Assembly (NCBI GenBank): GCA_965207225.1
Contig: CBDBLV010000005.1
Coordinates: forward strand, 448,001-512,000
Reading direction: 5' to 3'
Origin: Dehalococcoidia bacterium
GTDB taxonomy: Bacteria; Chloroflexota; Dehalococcoidia; Plut-88900
Length of the DNA: 64,000 bases
Part shown: piece by piece, positions 1 to 30,766 of the stretch
Position numbering within the stretch: position 1 is the stretch's first letter
Layout of the letters: each line of letters begins with the position of its first letter
Position numbers and translations under genes: made by a program
The notes under the pieces: model-generated
Seen by the model: only the letters and a program-made list of their open reading frames with translations
Databases searched by the model: none
What the model was told of the DNA's origin: nothing

Positions 1-264
1 AACGTGTGGCGCACGGTCAACCCACTCTTCATCGGCGCCTCCAGCGTGGCAGGGGTGGCCCTATGGCGCTCCGGACACCCTGTCGGACGCGTGGGAGCGG
101 TGGTCTCTGTAGCGCTGGGCGGACTCGTATTCGCCAATGGCTACTTCGTAGACAACGGAGTCATCTGGCAAATCCTGAACCCCGTACGCATGCTCACCGC
201 CCTCGCCTTGGCCGCCCTGGCAACCCAACCGCACCACCCCCGAACGCGTGGGACTATCGGATAA
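1..264 (+). CDS. 3' end of a hypothetical membrane protein (5' truncated by window edge)
   Basis: Open frame from base 1 to TAA at 262-264 with three hydrophobic stretches. Confidence 0.5.
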   Translation, partial: NVWRTVNPLFIGASSVAGVALWRSGHPVGRVGAVVSVALGGLVFANGYFVDNGVIWQILNPVRMLTALALAALATQPHHPRTRGTIG

Positions 265-284
265 CCGCTAACGCGCCACTCTCG

Positions 285-414
285 GTCATTCCGGCCCACG
301 GAGCCGGAATCCATCCCCGGCGGAAGGGCCGCTCACCCTGAGGCACTCGAAGGGTCGAGCTGGGGAGGTGTCCAGTCCTCTCTCTTTCGACGGGAGAGGG
401 CTAGGTTTAGGGGG
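285..414. repeat. Composite of three short palindromic repeat families (A+B+C)
   Basis: A: GTCATTCCGGC..GCCGGAATCCATCCCC (285-318). B: CGCTCACCCTGAGGCACTCGAAGGGTCGAGC (330-360). C: CCTCTCTCTTTCGACGGGAGAGGGCTAGG (within 373-414). Each recurs elsewhere in the window. Confidence 0.7.
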
Positions 415-429
415 ATTCTTTCCACCCCC

Positions 430-438
430 TGCTATAAT
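430..438 (+). promoter_or_regulatory. Extended -10 promoter element TGCTATAAT
   Basis: Perfect TGnTATAAT 12 nt upstream of the tRNA-like element. Confidence 0.55.
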
Positions 439-450
439 TTCAGAGACCTA

Positions 451-527
451 TGGTCATTGGCTCAGATGGCTAGAGCTCAGTCCTGATAGGGTTGGAAGTC
501 CTCGCTCGGGGCTACGGTGGCTTACCA
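451..527 (+). pseudogene. Degenerate tRNA-Ile(GAU)-like element
   Basis: 77 nt with canonical spacing. D-arm GCTC-AGATGGCTA-GAGC; anticodon stem CAGTC/GGTTG with loop CTGATAG; acceptor stem TGGTCAT/GTGGCTT (one mismatch, three G-U); 3' A-CCA. T-arm decayed (loop CTCGGGG, 3/5 stem pairs). Confidence 0.7.
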
Positions 528-757
528 GACAATTCTAAGAGTCTTACTAGGCACGTCTCGCTCACATCCACAATTGGCGCCATGTTGATTTGGACTCAGA
601 GTTCCGTATGCCCACCCTGATGTCTGGCATAGTTATCGAACTGAGCTAGAATATTCTTTGAATTCTGCCTTCTTAGTCCGTCTCGACATCCGCCCAACCT
701 TACCTGCTTCTGGCTTCTGTACGATATCAAATCAGGTGAAACTTTAGGATACAACTA

Positions 758-2860
758 ATGAAAATTGTCAATTTGATGGTGGAGAATTTCCGCGCAATTG
801 AGCAGGTCGAATTGATCGACTTGAGCGATATGGTTGTTATAGCTGGCCCCAACGGATGTGGTAAGTCGTGTATTCTGGATGCAATCCGTTTATTCAAATC
901 CGTATACGGCGGCTACCAACCAAACGAGTGGCACTAATGGATGAACGAATTTCAGATAAACATTCGCAATCTACAGCGACTAGTGTCGCTGTTAAGAGAT
1001 CGTTCGAGACCATCCGTGATAGAAGCACAGGTGGAACTTGCTGATGGAGAAAGACAATTTATCAGGGACAATGCAAATGCAATGGTGGAAGAGTTAGCTT
1101 GGAAGACTGTGGCACCCGGGTCACAGGCGTGGGGCCGCTCTGCAAATGCATTGGCTACGGAACTTAGAGCATATCGGCCACAAGTTGCCAAACAAGTCGC
1201 AGACCTGCTACCCATAGTATTGGATCAATTGAATTATCGCTTATTGAGTGGTCGTTTGGAGATTGATCCTTCAGGTCAAGCGACAACTACCAAGAATATT
1301 CTTTTGGAGTTGGTGTTCTCTTCATTTCACCCGAAACACATAGGCGTCATCGATTTTCATGGGGCGCACCGGAACTATGCCCGTGAGGAACTTGGAGGAA
1401 TCAACCTCAATCTGGATCAAGAAGAAGAACGGCTGCGTACTACTTCTTTGTACAATGCCGCAAGCAAATATTCCAACATAAAGAGTGAAATGGCGGCCGA
1501 ATATGTCAAAAATAATCTAAGGGAAAAACGCTTTGGAAAGGACAAGCTCGGCGAGGCTTCACCACCGCTTACAGAGACACTACAGGAATTATTCACTAAT
1601 TTCTTTCCAGGCAAGACCTTTTTGGGTCCAGAGCCTACTAGTGACGGTAATCTGGGATTTCCCGTAGAGATCAGCGGTGGATCGACACATGATATTAATG
1701 ACCTGTCCTCTGGAGAGAAGGAAATCCTCTTCGGCTATTTGCGGCTGAGAAATTCTGCTCCAAGATACTCAGTAATTCTCTTGGATGAACCAGAGCTGCA
1801 CTTGAATCCTGCCCTTGTTCGTGGGCTACCGCAGTTTTACTACAAACATATAGGCAGAGAATTAGAAAACCAGATTTGGCTAGTCACTCACTCGGATGCT
1901 TTCCTCAGAGAAGCTATCGGGCATAAAGGAGTGCAGGTTTTCCATATGCGCCATGCATCCGTCTCGCGGGAAACAAAGAACCAAATTCACGAACTTCATC
2001 CGGGGGAAGAAGTGGAATCAACCATATTAGATTTGGTTGGTAATTTGGCCACGTATAGCCCTGGTGGGAAGGTAGTGTTCTTCGAGGGTGAGGATTCGGA
2101 ATTTGACTTACACATGGTTTCGCGTCTATTTCCATCCATCGAAAATGAAATCAACCTTGTTTCTGGGGGCAATCGGTTCAGGGTAGAAGCGCTGCACAAA
2201 ATTCTGGAACGGAGTGTGGAGGTAGGTAAAATACCGGTAAGAATATACTCTGTAGTAGATAAAGACACTGGCAATGTTGTTGCACCGACTGATGACTTTC
2301 GCCGCCACTTTACTTGGGATGTATACCACATAGAAAACTATCTGTTGGAGCCGAAATTCATCGATGAGGCCTTAGGCAGCCTAGGTGTCTCCCATAATGA
2401 TCTATCTTCATTAGGGAAAATAGATCAGACACTTAAGCAAATCGCCGAGAATCAAATCGGCAAACTTGTCAGTCACCGCATAAGGTCAGACATTAACGCA
2501 GAACTAATCAAGGAATTGAATCTGAATAACAATCCCTTTTCTGATGATATCGGCGCCGACTTACATAGGGCAATTGAAGATTCTGTAGAGCGCATAAATC
2601 AGAAACGCAATACAAGCCTCCCCCTCGCTGATATTCGTAGACGAGTAGAGATGCAACAGCAATCCCTCAGCAAGTCACTTAACACGGAGGATTGGAAGAA
2701 GCACTTTCGTGGACGGGACATCCTGCAGGAGTTTGCGGGCAAATACCTCCCTGGCCTGCGGTACATCTATTTTCGTGAGTTGATCATCAGCCATATGAGC
2801 ACTGAAGGATATCAACCACAGGGAATGAAATCCGTTCTTGATCAGATAGTTGACGATTAA
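758..2860 (+). pseudogene. ABC-type ATPase (AAA_15/21-like) fused to a TOPRIM/DUF4435-like nuclease domain (fused PARIS AriAB / OLD-like); in-frame TAA at 935-937
   Basis: ATG 758 reads MKIVNLMVENFRAI..GPNGCGKS (Walker A), then TAA at codon 60, and the same frame continues into ORF 941-2860 with LSSGE signature, LLDEPELHL Walker B/D-loop, VTHS H-loop, TOPRIM-like FEGEDSEFD..VVDKD and YHIENYLL. AT-rich relative to flanks. Confidence 0.75.
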
Positions 2861-2930
2861 GGGGCTTCTGCTTGCACGGAGTGAAATTAGTGCGTTAAAC
2901 ACAGAGTTCCTACCCCCCACCCCCAAGAAA

Positions 2931-3782
2931 ATGCCCACCCCCCTAACCCCGACGTTCGCCCTCGAATACACTGGACTCCAGATCTGGTCTCTCCTAGACG
3001 ACCGGCAAGTCCGGGCCCTAGATGACGTCCTCGCCACCCACGGTGTCCTCGTCTTCCGACGCCAGGCCCTCACCGAGCACGAGCTCGTCGCCTTCAGCAA
3101 CCGCTTCGGCACACCCGACGTCATCGTCCGCACCGACTGGGCCTCCGGCGCCAACCCCGAGATTATCCAGATATCCAACATGCGCAACGCCAGGGGTGAG
3201 ACCATCGGGGGCCTTGGGTCGGGGGAACTGGCCTGGCACACCGACCAGGCCTACATGGCAAAACCCGCCACCGGCGCCATCCCCTACGGCGTCGAAGTCC
3301 CGGAGGACGGGCCCCGAACCTACTGGGCCAACCTCCGCCTCGCCTACGAAGCCCTCCCCCCCGACACCAGGGCCCGCATCGAAGGCCGACGCGCCATCTT
3401 CAGCTACGCCGAGCGCTACAAGGACTACAACGACGAGACCGTCCCCACCGAAGAAATCCTGGCTAAGACCCCGAAGGTGACCCATGCCCTGGTCCAGACC
3501 CATCCGGTGTCCGGCGCCAGGACCCTCTACCTGGACCCGAGCACCATGGTCGGCATCGAAGGGATGGAGGAGGCGGAAGGTCGGGCCCTGCTCGACGAGT
3601 TAATCCGGCACTCCACCCGTCCCGAGTTCGTCTACGCGCACACCTGGCAGCCCGGCGACCTGATCATGTGGGACAACGGCTTCATGCTCCACCGCCGCGA
3701 CGCATTCCGCACCGACCAAAACCGCCTCCTAAAGCGCGCAACCATCCGCCTCTCCCCCGACCGCCACGTCGTCCCGGACTAA
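2931..3782 (+). CDS. TauD/TfdA-family alpha-ketoglutarate-dependent dioxygenase
   Basis: WHTD (HxD), HGVLVFR, WQPGDLIMWDN..LHRR motifs. ATG at 2931 preferred over the overlapping upstream start. Confidence 0.9.
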   Translation: MPTPLTPTFALEYTGLQIWSLLDDRQVRALDDVLATHGVLVFRRQALTEHELVAFSNRFGTPDVIVRTDWASGANPEIIQISNMRNARGETIGGLGSGELAWHTDQAYMAKPATGAIPYGVEVPEDGPRTYWANLRLAYEALPPDTRARIEGRRAIFSYAERYKDYNDETVPTEEILAKTPKVTHALVQTHPVSGARTLYLDPSTMVGIEGMEEAEGRALLDELIRHSTRPEFVYAHTWQPGDLIMWDNGFMLHRRDAFRTDQNRLLKRATIRLSPDRHVVPD

Positions 3783-3892: not shown

Positions 3893-6800
3893 CTAAGGCG
3901 TATCGGGATTCTCGGGCTGATCATCGTAATAGCGTGACAGGAAAAGCAGCCCGTCATGGTATATGGCCCAGGTGTGCGCGTACAGGGTCTCCGACGTCCG
4001 GACGTTGGGGTAGATGTTGGTAATCCAGCGTCCGTCCTCCGTGACCAATGCAAACTCTTCGCCAAGCCGCCCACTGCTGAACGCAGGAATGTCGTTCAAG
4101 TTCGACCCTGCGAGTTGAGGGGCAAGGGGTGTGACCCGCAGAATGTCGTTCTCATCGGCCAGGGTCAGGCCCCACTGGCCGTCAATGCTCTCCTCATCGC
4201 TGTACAGGGCGATCGTGGCGTCCAGTCCATTGGCTTAGTAGTAGTCGATGGCCATTTGCACATACGCAATGGTATAGGCCGCAGGGTCATCAATCCGCTC
4301 GTAGTAACCCGAGGCGAAGAGCAATCCGTCCCGACGCACGGCATAGGAAATCTTGGGGACCTCATTTAGCGTTACAGGGTGGGGCCACAGGTATTCCACC
4401 CAGACTCCTTCCTCGGTGGCCTTGGCAAGTTCCTCGCCCAGCCTGTAGCCGTTTGCCCCTACCACATCGTTGATGTCCGTTCCTACCAGTTGGGGCAGCA
4501 GAGGGTGTACGTGATAGATGTCGTTCTCGTCGGTGGCGAAGAGATACCACTCACCCTCGAAGCTGGCGACGCTGTTGTAGTAGTTGAGCATGGATTCCAG
4601 GCCGTCCCGCTCGTAGCGCTCTATGGCCCGGTTCACGTACTGGACCGTGTATTCCATCGGGTCGGCGTCCCGCCAGGCCGGGGGCCCGGTTTCGGGCTCA
4701 CCGGCGTAGTAACCGGATGCGAATATCAACCCGTCGTGGCGAATGGCCCAGGTGACCTTTTGCTGTTCCTGCCGGGTCTCGGGATGAGGCCACAGGTATT
4801 CCACCCAGACGCCATCCTCGGTGGCCTGGGCTATCTCCCGGCCCAGCTCCTGCCCGTCGGACCCGACCACGTCCTTGATGTCGGTGCCGATGAGATGAGG
4901 GAAGATGGGATGGGCCACGTAGTTGTCATCCTCGCCGATGAGGAACAGGTAGAACTGTCCTTCAACGCTGTCTTGGCTGTTGTAGTGCGCAACGACAGAG
5001 TCGAGGCCCTCGCTATCGTATTTGGCTATGGCCCTGTTCACGTATTCCTTGACGGAGGCCGAAACGTCTGCCACTAGGATCGAGTGGCTGGTGGAGAACA
5101 CCAGGCCATCGTGACTGACGATGAGGACTCTCCGAGGTTCTTCCTGCTTGGTTGCCGGGTTTACGCCCCGGGTATCGACCCAGCTGCCTTCCTCGGTCGC
5201 GGCTTCTATCAACCCACCGAGGCCGGAAAATCTCGAACCCGGGCCAACGTATTGGCCTTGTAGGGCGGGTATGTTGCGGTATACCAGCAGCGTGCTTTCG
5301 GCTTCGTCCAGGAGGATAAGCGTCCGCCCGTTTTCGATGCTCTCCTCAGACCTGTAGAGTTCAACCGTGGCGTCCAGGCCGTTCTCTTCGTAGTACGCAA
5401 TGGCGTCATCGACAAAGGCCCGGCTTAGGTCGTCATCGCTGGGCGCATCGCTGGTGTCGGTGGGTGGCGGCGCGTCTGCGTCACCCTCGACGTAGTACGC
5501 AGAGGAGAAGACATATCCGTCGTGGCGGACAATCCAGAGGTACACCGTCAATTGCCCGGCTGCCCTGGGGTTGGGCCACAAGTACTTGAACCAGTGGCCT
5601 TGCTCGGTGGCGCTGAGCAGCGACTCGCCAATTGGCTCACCGGCCACAACTCCCCGGAACAGGCGAACATCCACTCCAACCAGCGCTTGCTCCGCCCCCG
5701 ATACGACTATGACGTTCTGGGGATTAACCATCAGTAGCCAGTAAGAGCCGTCAATGCTCTCCGGGCTGTTGTAGTGGGCAACCGTTGCCTCTAGGCCCTG
5801 GCTGTCGTAATAGTCCATAGCCTTCTGGACGTAGGCCTGTGTGTAGGCCACCGGGTCCGCGACCCCCGGATAGTAGCCCGACGCGAAGATCATCCCGTCC
5901 CGGCGCACCGCATACCCAACCTTTGGCACTTCCTTAAGCGTTAACGGGTGCGGCCACAGGTATTCGACCCACACGCCTTCTCCCTCCCCGGCCTTCGCCA
6001 GCTCCCTGCCCAACTCGTAGCCGTCGGAGCCCACGATGTCTTTGATGTCCGTGCCTATCAACTGGGGCAGCAGAGGGTGTACGTGATAGATGTCGTTCTC
6101 GTCGGTGGCAAAGAGATACCACTCGCCTTCAAAGCTGGCGACGCTGTTGTAGTAGTTGAGCATGGATTCCAGGCCGTCCCGCTCGTAACGCGCTATCGCC
6201 CGTTCCACGTACTCCATGGTGTACTCGCGCGGGTCAGCGCCCCGCCAGGCGGGCGGCTCCGTCGTCTCGCCCACCGTGTAGTAGCCGGACGCAAAGATGA
6301 GGCCATTGTGGCGGATGGCCCAGGTGGTCTTGGGCTCCTCCAGCCGCGAAATCGGGTTGGGCCACAGGTACTCCACCCAGATGCCTTGTTCAGTGGCCTG
6401 GGCTATCTCCTTGCCCAGTTCCTGCCCGTCGGAACCTACTACGCCCTTGATGTCGGTCCCTATCAGGTGCGGGAAAATGGGATGGGCCAGGTAGTTGTCA
6501 TCCGCGCCAATCAGGAACAGGTAGAAGATTCCCTCCAGGCTGCTGGGGTCGTTGTAGTGCGCAACCGTCGCTTCAAGCCCCTCACTCTCGTATAGGGCTA
6601 TTGCGCGGCTCACGTAATCCTTGGCGGCCTCCGCCACGTTCTCCTGGAGGGTGGAGTGGCCGGATACGAAGATTAGGCCGTCTTTAAGGACAAGGTAGTT
6701 CCGCACCGGGCCCTGTCTGGCTGAGCTGCCGGTGTCCATCTCCACCACATAGATCCCCTGTCCCTCATACCAGGCCCCGTCCTCTGTAGCGGGTCCCACC

Positions 6801-7345
6801 AAGAAATCGGCAGATTCGAGCTTGCTTCCCAGGAAATGATGATAGAACGGCATTGCCAGCAGGATGCCTTCATCCTTGCTGATTATGAACAGATACCGGT
6901 CTCCTTCAATGCTCTCTTCGCTCTTGTAATATTCGATCGTCGCGTCCCGGCCGTTGGCGTCGTAGTAGGCGATAGCCTTCTCTACGTAGGCCCGAGTTAA
7001 CTCGTCCGCATTCAACTCACCGGGTTCCGGTTCAGGCTCAGGCTCCGGCGTCGGCTCGGGTTCCGGCACGGGAGTTGCCGTAGGTTCAGGGACCGCCGTC
7101 GGCTCGGGCATTGCCGTAGGTTCAGGGACTGCCGTCGGCTGAGGAGCTGTGGTGGCCGTTGGGTCCGGCGCAGTCGTTGCAGTGGGTGCCTGGGTTGGGG
7201 CGGGGTCGTCGCCACAGGCAACTGCAATGGCTGCAATGGAAGCCACTATCAGAATCAAGAACAATACACTCGCGCCAATGGATATTGGCCTATGCTTCAA
7301 TGCCGTCCGGTTGGCCCGTATTTTGTTCTCTCGCTCGGTTCGCAA
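3893..7345 (-). CDS. Lipoprotein of eight tandem single-Cache domains; in-frame TAA at 4235-4237 truncates domain 8
   Basis: Hydrophobic signal plus lipobox IAVAC, PTA/PEP-rich linker, repeated 'YV.rAi..Y...G...YLF...HP..liG.dikd..g..G..lG.e...A...GvWVeYlWP.P...K.....R.dG.ifaSGYY' units. Reading through the TAA gives YY*ANGLDATIALY.. in frame into ORF 3893-4099. Confidence 0.8.
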
Positions 7346-30667: not shown

Positions 30668-30766
30668 TGGCGGGAGCGGGAGGGAGTCGAACCCACCGTG
30701 GACGCCGAAGGGAGCCCACCGGACGGATTTGAAGTCCGCGGAGCCCACCGGGACCCATCCGCTCCC
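30668..30766 (-). tRNA. selC: tRNA-Sec (anticodon UCA)
   Basis: 8-bp acceptor stem GGGAGCGG/CCGCTCCC, anticodon arm GCGGA-CTTCAAA-TCCGT, long variable arm, GTTCGACTC T-loop, 3' GCCA; 99 nt. Confidence 0.95.

Follow-up and report, generated by a model that had tools for sequence, protein, structure and literature searches.

A tRNA-Ile pseudogene at the edge of a putative defence-gene hotspot, followed by a probably inactive fused PARIS gene, in a Dehalococcoidia genome

The tRNA-shaped element at positions 451-527 of the window (the whole stretch of 64,000 nucleotides that was analysed, from the Dehalococcoidia genome referred to here as G000) is very probably an old pseudogene of tRNA-Ile in a defence-gene hotspot, where the fused PARIS gene AriAB would have been acquired later and would now be broken. 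The earlier note on this DNA had proposed an undescribed module in which a tRNA mimic acts as decoy, antitoxin or guide; this proposal fails against the homologous genes and the related genomes, and the simpler alternative raised in the same note, a decayed tRNA at the site of an island, is favoured by the evidence. A decayed spare tRNA-Ile gene and a later-arrived PARIS gene interrupted by a stop codon would therefore make this locus an ordinary one. The layout of the locus is given in Table 1.

Table 1. Features at the left end of the window
Feature	Positions	Strand	Basis or remark
Membrane-protein gene, 3' end; conserved left flank	1-264	+	ORF; 89% DNA identity to G008
Short dispersed genus repeat, copy between membrane gene and promoter	275-420		Absent here in G008
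Promoter segment CCACCCCCTGCTATAAT, extended -10 box from tRNA-Ile gene	422-438	+	17/17 identity
tRNA-Ile(GAU) pseudogene, decayed paralogue	451-527	+	54/77 identity, 18/21 stem pairs, broken T arm
Inserted island of low G+C, about 2.4 kb, AriAB as sole gene	545-2912		Left junction approximate, +/- 10 nt
Fused PARIS gene AriAB (ABC ATPase and putative DUF4435/TOPRIM), one in-frame stop	758-2860	+	PADLOC, Pfam
TAA nonsense codon 60	935-937	+	Between Walker A (residues 30-37) and remaining ATPase
TauD/TfdA-family dioxygenase gene; conserved right flank	2931-3782	+	Pfam TauD, E 5.7e-60

Results and discussion

The tRNA-like element

The host genome has one intact tRNA-Ile(GAU) gene, the sole such copy (G000:C1:177682-177758), and the element aligns with it free of gaps over all 77 positions, the identity rising to 57/77 when one gap pair is introduced. 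The score of this alignment is 34, and the runner-up among the ARAGORN-called host tRNAs reaches 13. The eight genus genomes whose copy was read all show 77/77 identity for the real tRNA-Ile (8/8), and in G000 a large serine recombinase gene adjoins it.

The D arm, the anticodon arm with GAU, the wobble-rich acceptor stem, the CCA end and the altered T loop, which the earlier note had described, are all present in the sequence. The D stem is completely paired (4/4), and so is the anticodon stem (5/5, with two G-U pairs), which carries the anticodon GAU; the acceptor stem keeps 6 of 7 pairs, three of them G-U, with U-U at the first pair, and the CCA is encoded. The T stem is paired at 3 of 5 positions, and the T loop reads CTCGGGG, versus TTCGAGT in the real tRNA-Ile. 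The exact tRNA geometry claimed previously holds as far as the gap-free alignment is concerned, but ARAGORN calls no tRNA at 451-527, the Rfam tRNA model RF00005 gives no match in window 250-800 at E values up to 10 (the real host tRNA-Ile scores 68.5 bits against the Rfam tRNA model), and the minimum-energy fold is not better than that of shuffled sequences (z = 0.16), a result that is uninformative. The geometry is accounted for by descent without insertions or deletions, and it does not demonstrate constraint. The sole Rfam match in window 250-800, scr4677 on the minus strand (E 7.9), was taken as chance.

The pattern of the changes is largely, though not wholly, that of a random spread, which the earlier note had regarded as speaking against a functional RNA. 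The substitutions do not discriminate between stems and loops (Fisher P = 0.22), and in the orthologous element of a related genome, G008, 15/21 stem pairs remain, the D stem is broken and the anticodon has become GAC. The retention of stem pairs, 18/21, points the other way: when 23 substitutions are placed at random, 18 or more of the 21 pairs persist in 5.5% of the simulations (P = 0.055). Five stem pairs survive via changes to G-U, and no change is seen at positions 28-38, which span the anticodon stem on its 5' side and most of the anticodon loop. The 3' half has changed at 14/33 positions and the 5' half at 9/44 (P = 0.046).

On the preferred explanation, 451-527 would be an ancient spare copy of the host tRNA-Ile(GAU) gene, no longer functional but with its promoter still in place. 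The idea that it might act as a suppressor, reading through the TAA codon of AriAB, was rejected because its anticodon is GAU.

The promoter segment

A promoter-like box had been noted ahead of the element, and it is found there, as TGCTATAAT at 430-438. That it is the element's own promoter is supported by homology, as the 17-mer CCACCCCCTGCTATAAT is shared without a difference between the region ahead of the real tRNA-Ile (C1:177655) and the region ahead of 451-527. A simple sigma-70 scan misses TGCTATAAT because no -35 box fits. The 17-mer has one more copy, at C5:447621, which was considered as a possible tRNA remnant and discarded; the alignment with G008 places it where the membrane-protein gene has its promoter.

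It is possible, although rather unlikely, that the tRNA body is dead and that the promoter has been selected to express whatever gene occupies the site, the pseudo-tRNA being the 5' leader of the mRNA. The box TGCTATAAT is unchanged in all four pseudo-copies of the TTTCA type (G000, G008, G002b and G001c), the tRNA bodies of which are 58-77% identical to one another, and therefore the element is not wholly neutral. The box is also enriched in the genome (34 observed versus 8.5 expected from composition), a gene on the same strand follows directly behind the pseudo-tRNA in three of the four copies (G000, G008 and G001c), and no terminator-like site was found on the plus strand between 527 and 758 by a simple scan, in which the counts equal those of shuffled sequences. 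However, the four copies are related, so that the conservation of TGCTATAAT counts as fewer than four independent events, and gene conversion from the promoter of the real tRNA-Ile could also preserve the box. Moreover, the gene after the G002b pseudo-tRNA is on the opposite strand, and the island itself contains a promoter-like site, at 624-652, this site being weak and, with counts equal to those of shuffles, no evidence in itself. If 451-527 is a dead duplicate, as preferred here, its likely maximum role at present would be to lend its -10 box to transcription into the inserted gene.

The AriAB gene and its nonsense codon

The AT-rich gene reported to start 230 nt downstream on the same strand is confirmed at 758-2860, its G+C content being 0.41-0.49 (about 0.45) versus 0.62-0.67 in the flanks and 0.60-0.62 per contig of the genome. 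Its assignment as a fused PARIS-like gene is also correct: the PADLOC AriAB model PDLC02981 matches with E 2.4e-202, aligning residues 1-699 with model positions 1-692 of 694, and a PADLOC search of the whole genome gives the same AriAB result. Three Pfam families score above their cut-offs (AAA_15, 67.3 bits; AAA_21, 66.6 bits; SMC_N, 40.2 bits), and DUF4435 scores 26.7 bits over residues 439-658, just short of its cut-off of 27; this putative DUF4435/TOPRIM part is wholly covered by the PADLOC AriAB model. The motif GPNGCGKS at residues 30-37 is presumably the Walker A motif, and D343/E344, which are invariant columns, are taken to be Walker B. In the putative TOPRIM part, the alignment of 24 sequences shows no variation at E443, D501 and D503, which are assumed here to be candidate catalytic residues. 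Every invariant column of this alignment is retained in the window's AriAB. The closest intact homologues are 700 aa long and 80% identical, and metagenomes commonly contain intact homologues of about 700 aa. Two homologues, P0112 and P0100, have short N termini.

The reading frame is interrupted at codon 60, where 21 of the 22 homologues with a residue in this column have Q and the remaining one has H. Over window positions 300-3000, which include the TAA, there are 0 differences in the contigs from three runs of one sample, which is probably the sample that the window comes from. Since the rest of the frame is intact, the break is recent. Separately, a marine metagenome of a second study contains short, slightly different pieces of the 3' half of AriAB, in which codon 60 is uncovered.

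With this stop AriAB is probably inactive. By normal decoding no full-length protein would be made, and a restart of translation at codon 62, an ATG, would generate an AriAB without the Walker A loop. In an intact AriAB, by homology with the family and with PARIS of E. coli, the ABC-ATPase part would sense a phage trigger and the TOPRIM part would cut tRNA anticodon arms, upon which translation would stop. According to PMC11464382, phage-triggered tRNA cleavage and phage protection are known only for the E. coli PARIS.

The variable slot in the genus

In G008, which belongs to the same genus, a decayed tRNA orthologous to 451-527 is found between the same membrane-protein gene (L019 4141-4419) and the same TauD gene, and the two pseudo-tRNAs have six derived bases in common (positions 9, 20, 41, 49, 59 and 67; P about 0.01 if the changes are independent). 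They differ from each other at 26/77 positions, as compared with 29/148 for the four-fold sites of TauD. The homology with G008 stops some 15-20 nt past the pseudo-tRNA, and it resumes at 2913 in G008, G007 and G002, at 2915 in G006 and at 2934-2936 in G005 and G001. The TauD gene is 77-93% DNA-identical in G001, G002, G005, G006, G007, G008 and G010.

The DNA between these two borders differs between the genomes. In G008 the pseudo-tRNA is followed by a 486-aa Schlafen-type protein (PF04326), without AriAB. An intact tRNA-Ile at the syntenic site in relatives, which the earlier note had named as a finding against its own idea, does occur by the same TauD gene in G002 and G007; past it, the slot by TauD holds an Mrr-type nuclease in G002, and a type II methylase, a restriction-enzyme-like ATPase and Vsr in G007. 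More decayed tRNA-Ile copies are found in G001, G002 and G004. As judged from these comparisons, the slot is a hotspot in the genus for the exchange of different low-G+C defence genes. Its left edge would be the pseudo-tRNA and its right edge TauD, with the acquired AriAB filling it here.

The genes behind both orthologous pseudo-tRNAs belong to families that include anticodon-arm tRNases, which may go beyond coincidence, but with n = 2; such cutting is described for AriB in PMC11464382, and for members of the prokaryotic Schlafen proteins, defined by PF04326, in PMC13056530.

The stretch between the membrane-protein gene and the promoter is a repeat that occurs across the genus genomes, with dozens of matches of 73-97% identity to about 268-438, mostly to 280-420; elsewhere in the class, a few genomes have short matches that stand alone. 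The tRNA-Arg that ARAGORN calls at 353-434 lies inside this dispersed repeat and has no Rfam tRNA match, and it was taken as a false positive. Among direct and inverted repeats sought around the island, the only flanking pair is a direct repeat at 594-617 and 2899-2922 (18/24 matches), which was set aside; by a rough estimate it is at chance level, it belongs to a short two-copy family, a type that often arises by chance, and its right copy is not conserved in the relatives, whose homology begins at 2913.

Genomic islands are often located at tRNA genes. It is nevertheless very unlikely that the AriAB island was integrated by a recombinase into a functional tRNA-Ile gene, with the element as the hybrid tRNA that remained as an attachment-site scar. 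Such an event would fit the higher number of changes in the 3' half, the large serine recombinase gene that abuts the real tRNA-Ile, and the two AriAB loci elsewhere that lie behind a tRNA-Leu gene and a tRNA-Pro fragment. However, both halves of the element, together with some 15-20 nt on the 3' side, are orthologous in G008, where another gene is inserted, and the common derived bases are found in both halves. The duplicate also takes in the promoter, which integration at a 3' end does not copy; furthermore, no recombinase gene is present inside the 2.4-kb island, and the only flanking direct repeat is the one just discarded. In the preferred explanation, the pseudo-tRNA would predate the AriAB insertion and would lie outside any PARIS module.

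AriAB loci in other genomes

AriAB is found in one of the 12 genomes of the family, this being G000 itself, and in 2 of the 401 genomes of the phylum sample. Its closest relatives, with 80% and 76% identity, are in records titled Dehalococcoidia and Gammaproteobacteria. From its G+C content, this distribution and these relatives, AriAB is seen here as a horizontally acquired gene of sporadic occurrence.

The earlier note had also stated that its idea would suffer if homologous genes lacked the RNA, and this is what is found. None of the 38 AriAB loci of other genomes (0/38) has a match to window positions 300-736, and the homology with the closest AriAB locus begins at position 737. The upstream regions of the 38 loci were scanned by BLAST with the 48 tRNAs of the host, a search in which the positive control from the window was found (E 3.4e-5); as these probes are the tRNAs of one genome, decayed tRNA-like elements that have diverged too far would escape it. 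A tRNA-derived sequence within 1 kb upstream of AriAB was found at two of the 38 loci, and it is another tRNA in both cases: in L034, AriAB lies 66 nt behind an intact tRNA-Leu(TAG), and in L032 a 50-nt 3' fragment of a tRNA-Pro is found upstream of AriAB on the opposite strand. Four more BLAST matches, of 13-17 nt and with E values of 0.008-0.033 (in L029, a second one in L034, L039 and L062), were taken as chance. A profile built with nhmmer from 37 host tRNAs flagged L032 and L034 as well when run on the 38 loci, but it was dropped as a test because it missed its own positive control, 451-527.

It is highly improbable that the promoter and the tRNA-like leader form a fixed expression platform for exchanged defence genes, whose leader may also restrain the nucleases of its occupants in cis. 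The suggestion that the leader might bind or restrain them comes from the two occupants, as both their families include anticodon-arm tRNases (AriAB in G000, PF04326 in G008). The -10 box present in 4/4 copies and the anticodon arm kept in the window's copy would agree with such a platform; the drift of the tRNA body, which is at least that of silent sites, and the occurrence of AriAB elsewhere without such an RNA are against it.

Likewise highly improbable, and largely refuted by these comparisons, is the proposed module itself, a tRNA-shaped RNA made from its own promoter that serves AriAB as a guide or as a decoy or antitoxin on its TOPRIM nuclease: the retained promoter box, the intact anticodon arm with its G-U changes, the 18/21 stem pairs kept over the whole element (P = 0.055), the recognition of the anticodon stem-loop by AriB and the neutralisation of PARIS by a variant phage tRNA (both from PMC11464382), and the gene of a tRNA-cutting family behind the G008 orthologue (PMC13056530) would speak for it, but the RNA is missing from the AriAB loci elsewhere (0/38 for window 300-736, and tRNA-Leu and tRNA-Pro in the two with upstream tRNAs), the element predates AriAB at the site and is present in G008 without AriAB, the divergence of its body is no slower than that of four-fold sites, the D stem of the G008 copy is broken and its anticodon altered, the fold is no better than that of shuffles, the AriB targets known from E. 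coli are, according to 10.1101/2025.02.04.636281, tRNA-Lys, tRNA-Thr and tRNA-Asn, not tRNA-Ile, and the AriAB gene is itself broken.

Significance and comparison with known systems

The comparison with relatives and homologues does not bear out a tRNA mimic, encoded by the host, as partner of a nuclease that cuts tRNAs, and the locus carries little weight as a lead for new defence systems. Its value is rather as an example of a tRNA-Ile-linked slot that would exchange single defence genes in one genus of the phylum, the occupants seen being PARIS, a Schlafen-type protein, a type II restriction-modification set and an Mrr-type nuclease, and as a dated example of a PARIS gene that appears freshly inactivated. 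It also cautions against reading a functional RNA into cloverleaf geometry and a conserved promoter, both of which a decayed tRNA paralogue can retain. Should the promoter indeed be preserved for the expression of the inserted gene, this would add a little to the understanding of such slots.

In its tRNA shape, its altered anticodon stem and its PARIS context, the element resembles the variant tRNAs of phage T5. The T5 tRNAs, however, are working isoacceptors of the attacker that replace the cleaved host tRNAs, according to PMC11464382 and 10.1101/2025.02.04.636281, whereas the element at 451-527 is derived from the host, fails the tRNA models, has Ile identity and is unlinked to AriAB elsewhere. 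The window's gene is like the known fused AriAB of PARIS in its full-length PADLOC match, its ABC-ATPase motifs and its putative DUF4435/TOPRIM part; it is unlike it in having a stop at codon 60, and the family occurs in just those two genomes of the phylum sample. With respect to tRNA genes at island hotspots, the duplicate here differs in being full-length and in having its promoter, instead of being a 3' att core only, and the inserts consist of single genes, with no recombinase among them. The locus is nevertheless similar to the tRNA pseudogenes at such hotspots, as a decayed tRNA bounds a low-G+C insert, the relatives have other inserts, more decayed copies occur nearby, and the real tRNA-Ile has a serine recombinase gene right beside it.

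The tRNA-shaped element is derived from tRNA-Ile

The source genome (G000; 4.03 Mb, five contigs), of which the window is C5:448001-512000, has a G+C content of 0.60-0.62 per contig. Between the membrane-protein gene and the TauD-family gene are found, in this order, a dispersed repeat, the CCACCCCCTGCTATAAT box, the 77-nt tRNA-shaped element and a low-G+C stretch with AriAB, the fused PARIS defence gene.

Features of the locus, in window coordinates
Feature	Position	Strand	Remarks
Membrane-protein gene, 3' end	1-264		left flank
Short dispersed repeat copy	~275-420
Box CCACCCCCTGCTATAAT	422-438
77-nt tRNA-shaped element	451-527
AriAB, single long frame	758-2860	+	within stretch of 0.41-0.49 G+C
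In-frame TAA of AriAB	935-937	+
TauD-family gene	2931-3782		Pfam E 5.7e-60
1036-aa frame	4235-7345	-	N-terminal region Pro/Thr/Glu-rich; several repeats of a ~130-aa module
tRNA-SeC, anticodon TCA	30668-30766	-	ARAGORN

The element has a D stem with all four pairs, an anticodon stem with five of five (two of them G-U) and the anticodon GAU, an acceptor stem with six of seven (three G-U, the first pair being U-U), an encoded CCA, and a T stem with three of five pairs and the T loop CTCGGGG, which matches base for base the description in the earlier note. ARAGORN calls no tRNA at 451-527, nothing in 250-800 is matched by the Rfam tRNA model up to an E of 10, and the minimum-energy fold does not stand out from those of shuffled sequences (z = 0.16). 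The best match among the ARAGORN-called tRNAs of the genome is its sole tRNA-Ile(GAU) (C1:177682-177758; score 34 versus 13 for the next), with 57/77 identical positions when one gap pair is allowed and 54/77 ungapped. The similarity extends upstream, where the 17 bases of CCACCCCCTGCTATAAT are identical before both copies, so that the element is a tRNA-Ile paralogue, duplicated together with its promoter. As judged from these alignments, the element is clearly derived from the host tRNA-Ile(GAU).

The dispersed repeat (~80-140 nt, with internal hairpins) has further copies at G000:C5:447524-447595 and in many other places, with dozens of 73-97% matches across the genomes of the genus, and tends to occur in intergenic DNA near promoters. 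An 82-nt "tRNA-Arg" called by ARAGORN at 353-434 is inside this repeat, is without Rfam support and was rejected.

Decayed tRNA-Ile copies and a variable slot in related genomes

The real tRNA-Ile is identical at 77/77 positions in all eight genus genomes read (G000, G001, G002, G004, G005, G006, G007 and G008, with G003 left out). An intact tRNA-Ile is found upstream of TauD at 1.1 kb in G002 and at 4.6 kb in G007. In G008, the membrane gene is directly followed by a decayed tRNA-Ile-like sequence (locus L019, 4110-4035, minus strand); a low-G+C stretch of 1.7 kb, occupied by another gene, separates this sequence from TauD, and the intact tRNA-Ile is 6 kb further upstream. The G008 copy and the element are homologous from the promoter to ~15-20 nt beyond the 3' end, and six derived bases (positions 9, 20, 41, 49, 59 and 67) are common to both, where ~2 are expected under independent changes (P ~0.01). 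The G008 copy retains 15/21 stem pairs, its D stem is broken and its anticodon is GAC. Further decayed copies, with 14-19 of 21 pairs, occur in G001 (two), G002 and G004 (anticodons GGT, CAT, GAT and CAT). The copies with CAT are at L068 197-273 (G004; 19/21 pairs) and L065 216-292 (G001; 17/21); the former is a tRNA-Met according to ARAGORN.

What lies between TauD and the tRNA-Ile copy, whether real or decayed, varies from one relative to another and includes genes of defence type: G007 has a C5 methylase, Vsr and a restriction-enzyme-like ATPase, G002 an Mrr-type nuclease, G008 a PF04326 (Schlafen) protein and the source genome AriAB. The G008 occupant (L019 2375-3835, minus strand, 486 aa) has an N-terminal PF04326 Schlafen/AlbA_2 match (E 2.5e-13) and is PDC-S50 in PADLOC. 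Right-hand homology restarts at window position 2913 (G008, G007, G002), 2915 (G006) or 2934-2936 (G005, G001). The real tRNA-Ile of the source genome adjoins the gene of a 501-aa large serine recombinase (G000:C1:177758 onward; L006 1539-3044, minus strand) with Resolvase, Recombinase and Zn_ribbon_recom domains, and G006, G010 and G011 have DNA matching this region in several places, in all three also directly after tRNA-Ile. This suggests an integrative element that would target tRNA-Ile.

The element is very probably a tRNA-Ile pseudogene of long standing that borders a slot for defence genes, in which AriAB, of foreign origin and now broken, arrived later. This bears out the simpler alternative of the earlier note, a decayed tRNA at an island site.

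The AriAB gene and its in-frame stop

Translated with readthrough of the stop, the gene gives a product of 700 residues that matches PADLOC AriAB end to end (E 2.4e-202), so that the earlier call of a fused PARIS-like ATPase-TOPRIM gene was right; among Pfam families, AAA_15, AAA_21 and SMC_N are matched, and DUF4435 scores 26.7 bits, just below the 27-bit cut-off. Intact 700-aa homologues are plentiful (best identity 80%; 2269 proteins at E <=0.001 among 8000 scored). Out of the 120 homologues listed, 23 were hand-picked to span the range of identities and aligned with the product; at codon 60, 21 of them have Q and one has H, and one starts later. A single base change thus separates the TAA from a CAA glutamine codon. 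The inactivation looks recent, because all invariant columns of the alignment are kept in the window's gene. Three runs of a single sample (probably the source) gave contigs that have no differences over 300-3000. The stop is therefore no error confined to the deposited assembly, though minor alleles are hidden in contigs.

Late starts occur in two of the 120 listed homologues, P0112 (637 aa) and P0100 (630 aa), the start of P0112 being the Met that matches the window's codon 62, just after the stop. Another study's marine metagenome (run X5) contains short contigs 98-99% identical to 2069-2723; they cover parts of the AriAB 3' half, with codon 60 outside, and a very close relative therefore occurs elsewhere.

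A retained promoter

The motif TGCTATAAT is observed 34 times in the genome versus 8.5 expected from composition, which fits an extended -10 promoter. The -10 box is unchanged in all four "TTTCA"-type pseudo-copies (G000, G008, G002b and G001c), the bodies of which are only 58-77% identical to one another, and three of these copies are followed by a gene on the same strand. The -10 box may be the part still under selection. That the promoter has been kept to drive the inserted gene is a tentative, rather doubtful idea, and is compatible with the pseudogene reading. A third CCACCCCCTGCTATAAT copy (G000:C5:447621-447641, ~380 nt before the window start), with 21 nt identical to the window's copy, precedes the membrane-protein gene; the same place in G008 has diverged promoter-like sequence.

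Structural constraint and the relation to AriAB

The 23 differences between the element and the real tRNA-Ile fall at 10 of 42 stem positions and at 13 of the other 35 (Fisher P = 0.22). When 23 substitutions were placed at random in 100,000 simulations, with the share of transitions as observed, at least 18 stem pairs survived in 5.5%; the figure was 64% when each substitution stayed at its position and its type alone was shuffled. For the window's copy this is a post hoc and at best borderline sign of structural constraint, which is absent from the G008 orthologue. The element differs from the G008 copy at 26/77 positions, versus 29/148 four-fold degenerate sites of TauD (Fisher P = 0.02), so that the rate of change in the tRNA-like body is no lower than at silent sites.

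The earlier note had proposed that the element could be a working RNA partner of the AriAB nuclease. In E. coli, tRNA-Lys, as well as tRNA-Thr and tRNA-Asn, is cleaved by AriB in the anticodon stem-loop (PMC11464382; 10.1101/2025.02.04.636281), and fused AriA-AriB forms occur (PMC11464382). Cleavage of tRNAs at the anticodon arm is also described for members of the Schlafen (PF04326) family (PMC13056530), so that each of the two orthologous pseudo-tRNAs is followed by a gene from a tRNA-cutting family (n = 2). This speaks for such a module, as do the borderline pair retention and the anticodon arm, of which the 5' strand and loop are unchanged; however, the retention is not shared by the G008 orthologue, and window 300-736 has no blastn match in any of 38 AriAB-relative loci, which come from many phyla, one genome having been scanned per species. 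The module is not supported by these comparisons and is highly improbable.

Similarity to the window begins at 737 in the closest of these loci, L026, and at or after 757 in the rest. Four of the 38 contain a tRNA call by ARAGORN, at whatever position (L034, L037, L045 and L063): in L034 an intact tRNA-Leu(TAG) (2850-2934) ends 66 nt before AriAB on the same strand, L037 has two tRNA-Asn 2.7 kb downstream, and the L045 call is an odd 86-nt one. When up to 1 kb upstream is searched by BLAST with the 48 host tRNAs, which finds the element as positive control (E 3.4e-5), clear matches are obtained in two of the 38, L034 and L032; the latter (130-179, minus strand) is a 50-nt 3' fragment of tRNA-Pro(GGG), ~640 nt upstream of AriAB on the other strand, and looks like an att remnant. 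AriAB was found in one of 12 genomes of the family, the source genome alone, and in 2/401 of the phylum sample, the second (G351, Chloroflexota) having the coordinates of L034. AriAB, without a fixed tRNA-like partner, therefore sometimes adjoins tRNA genes, as islands do.
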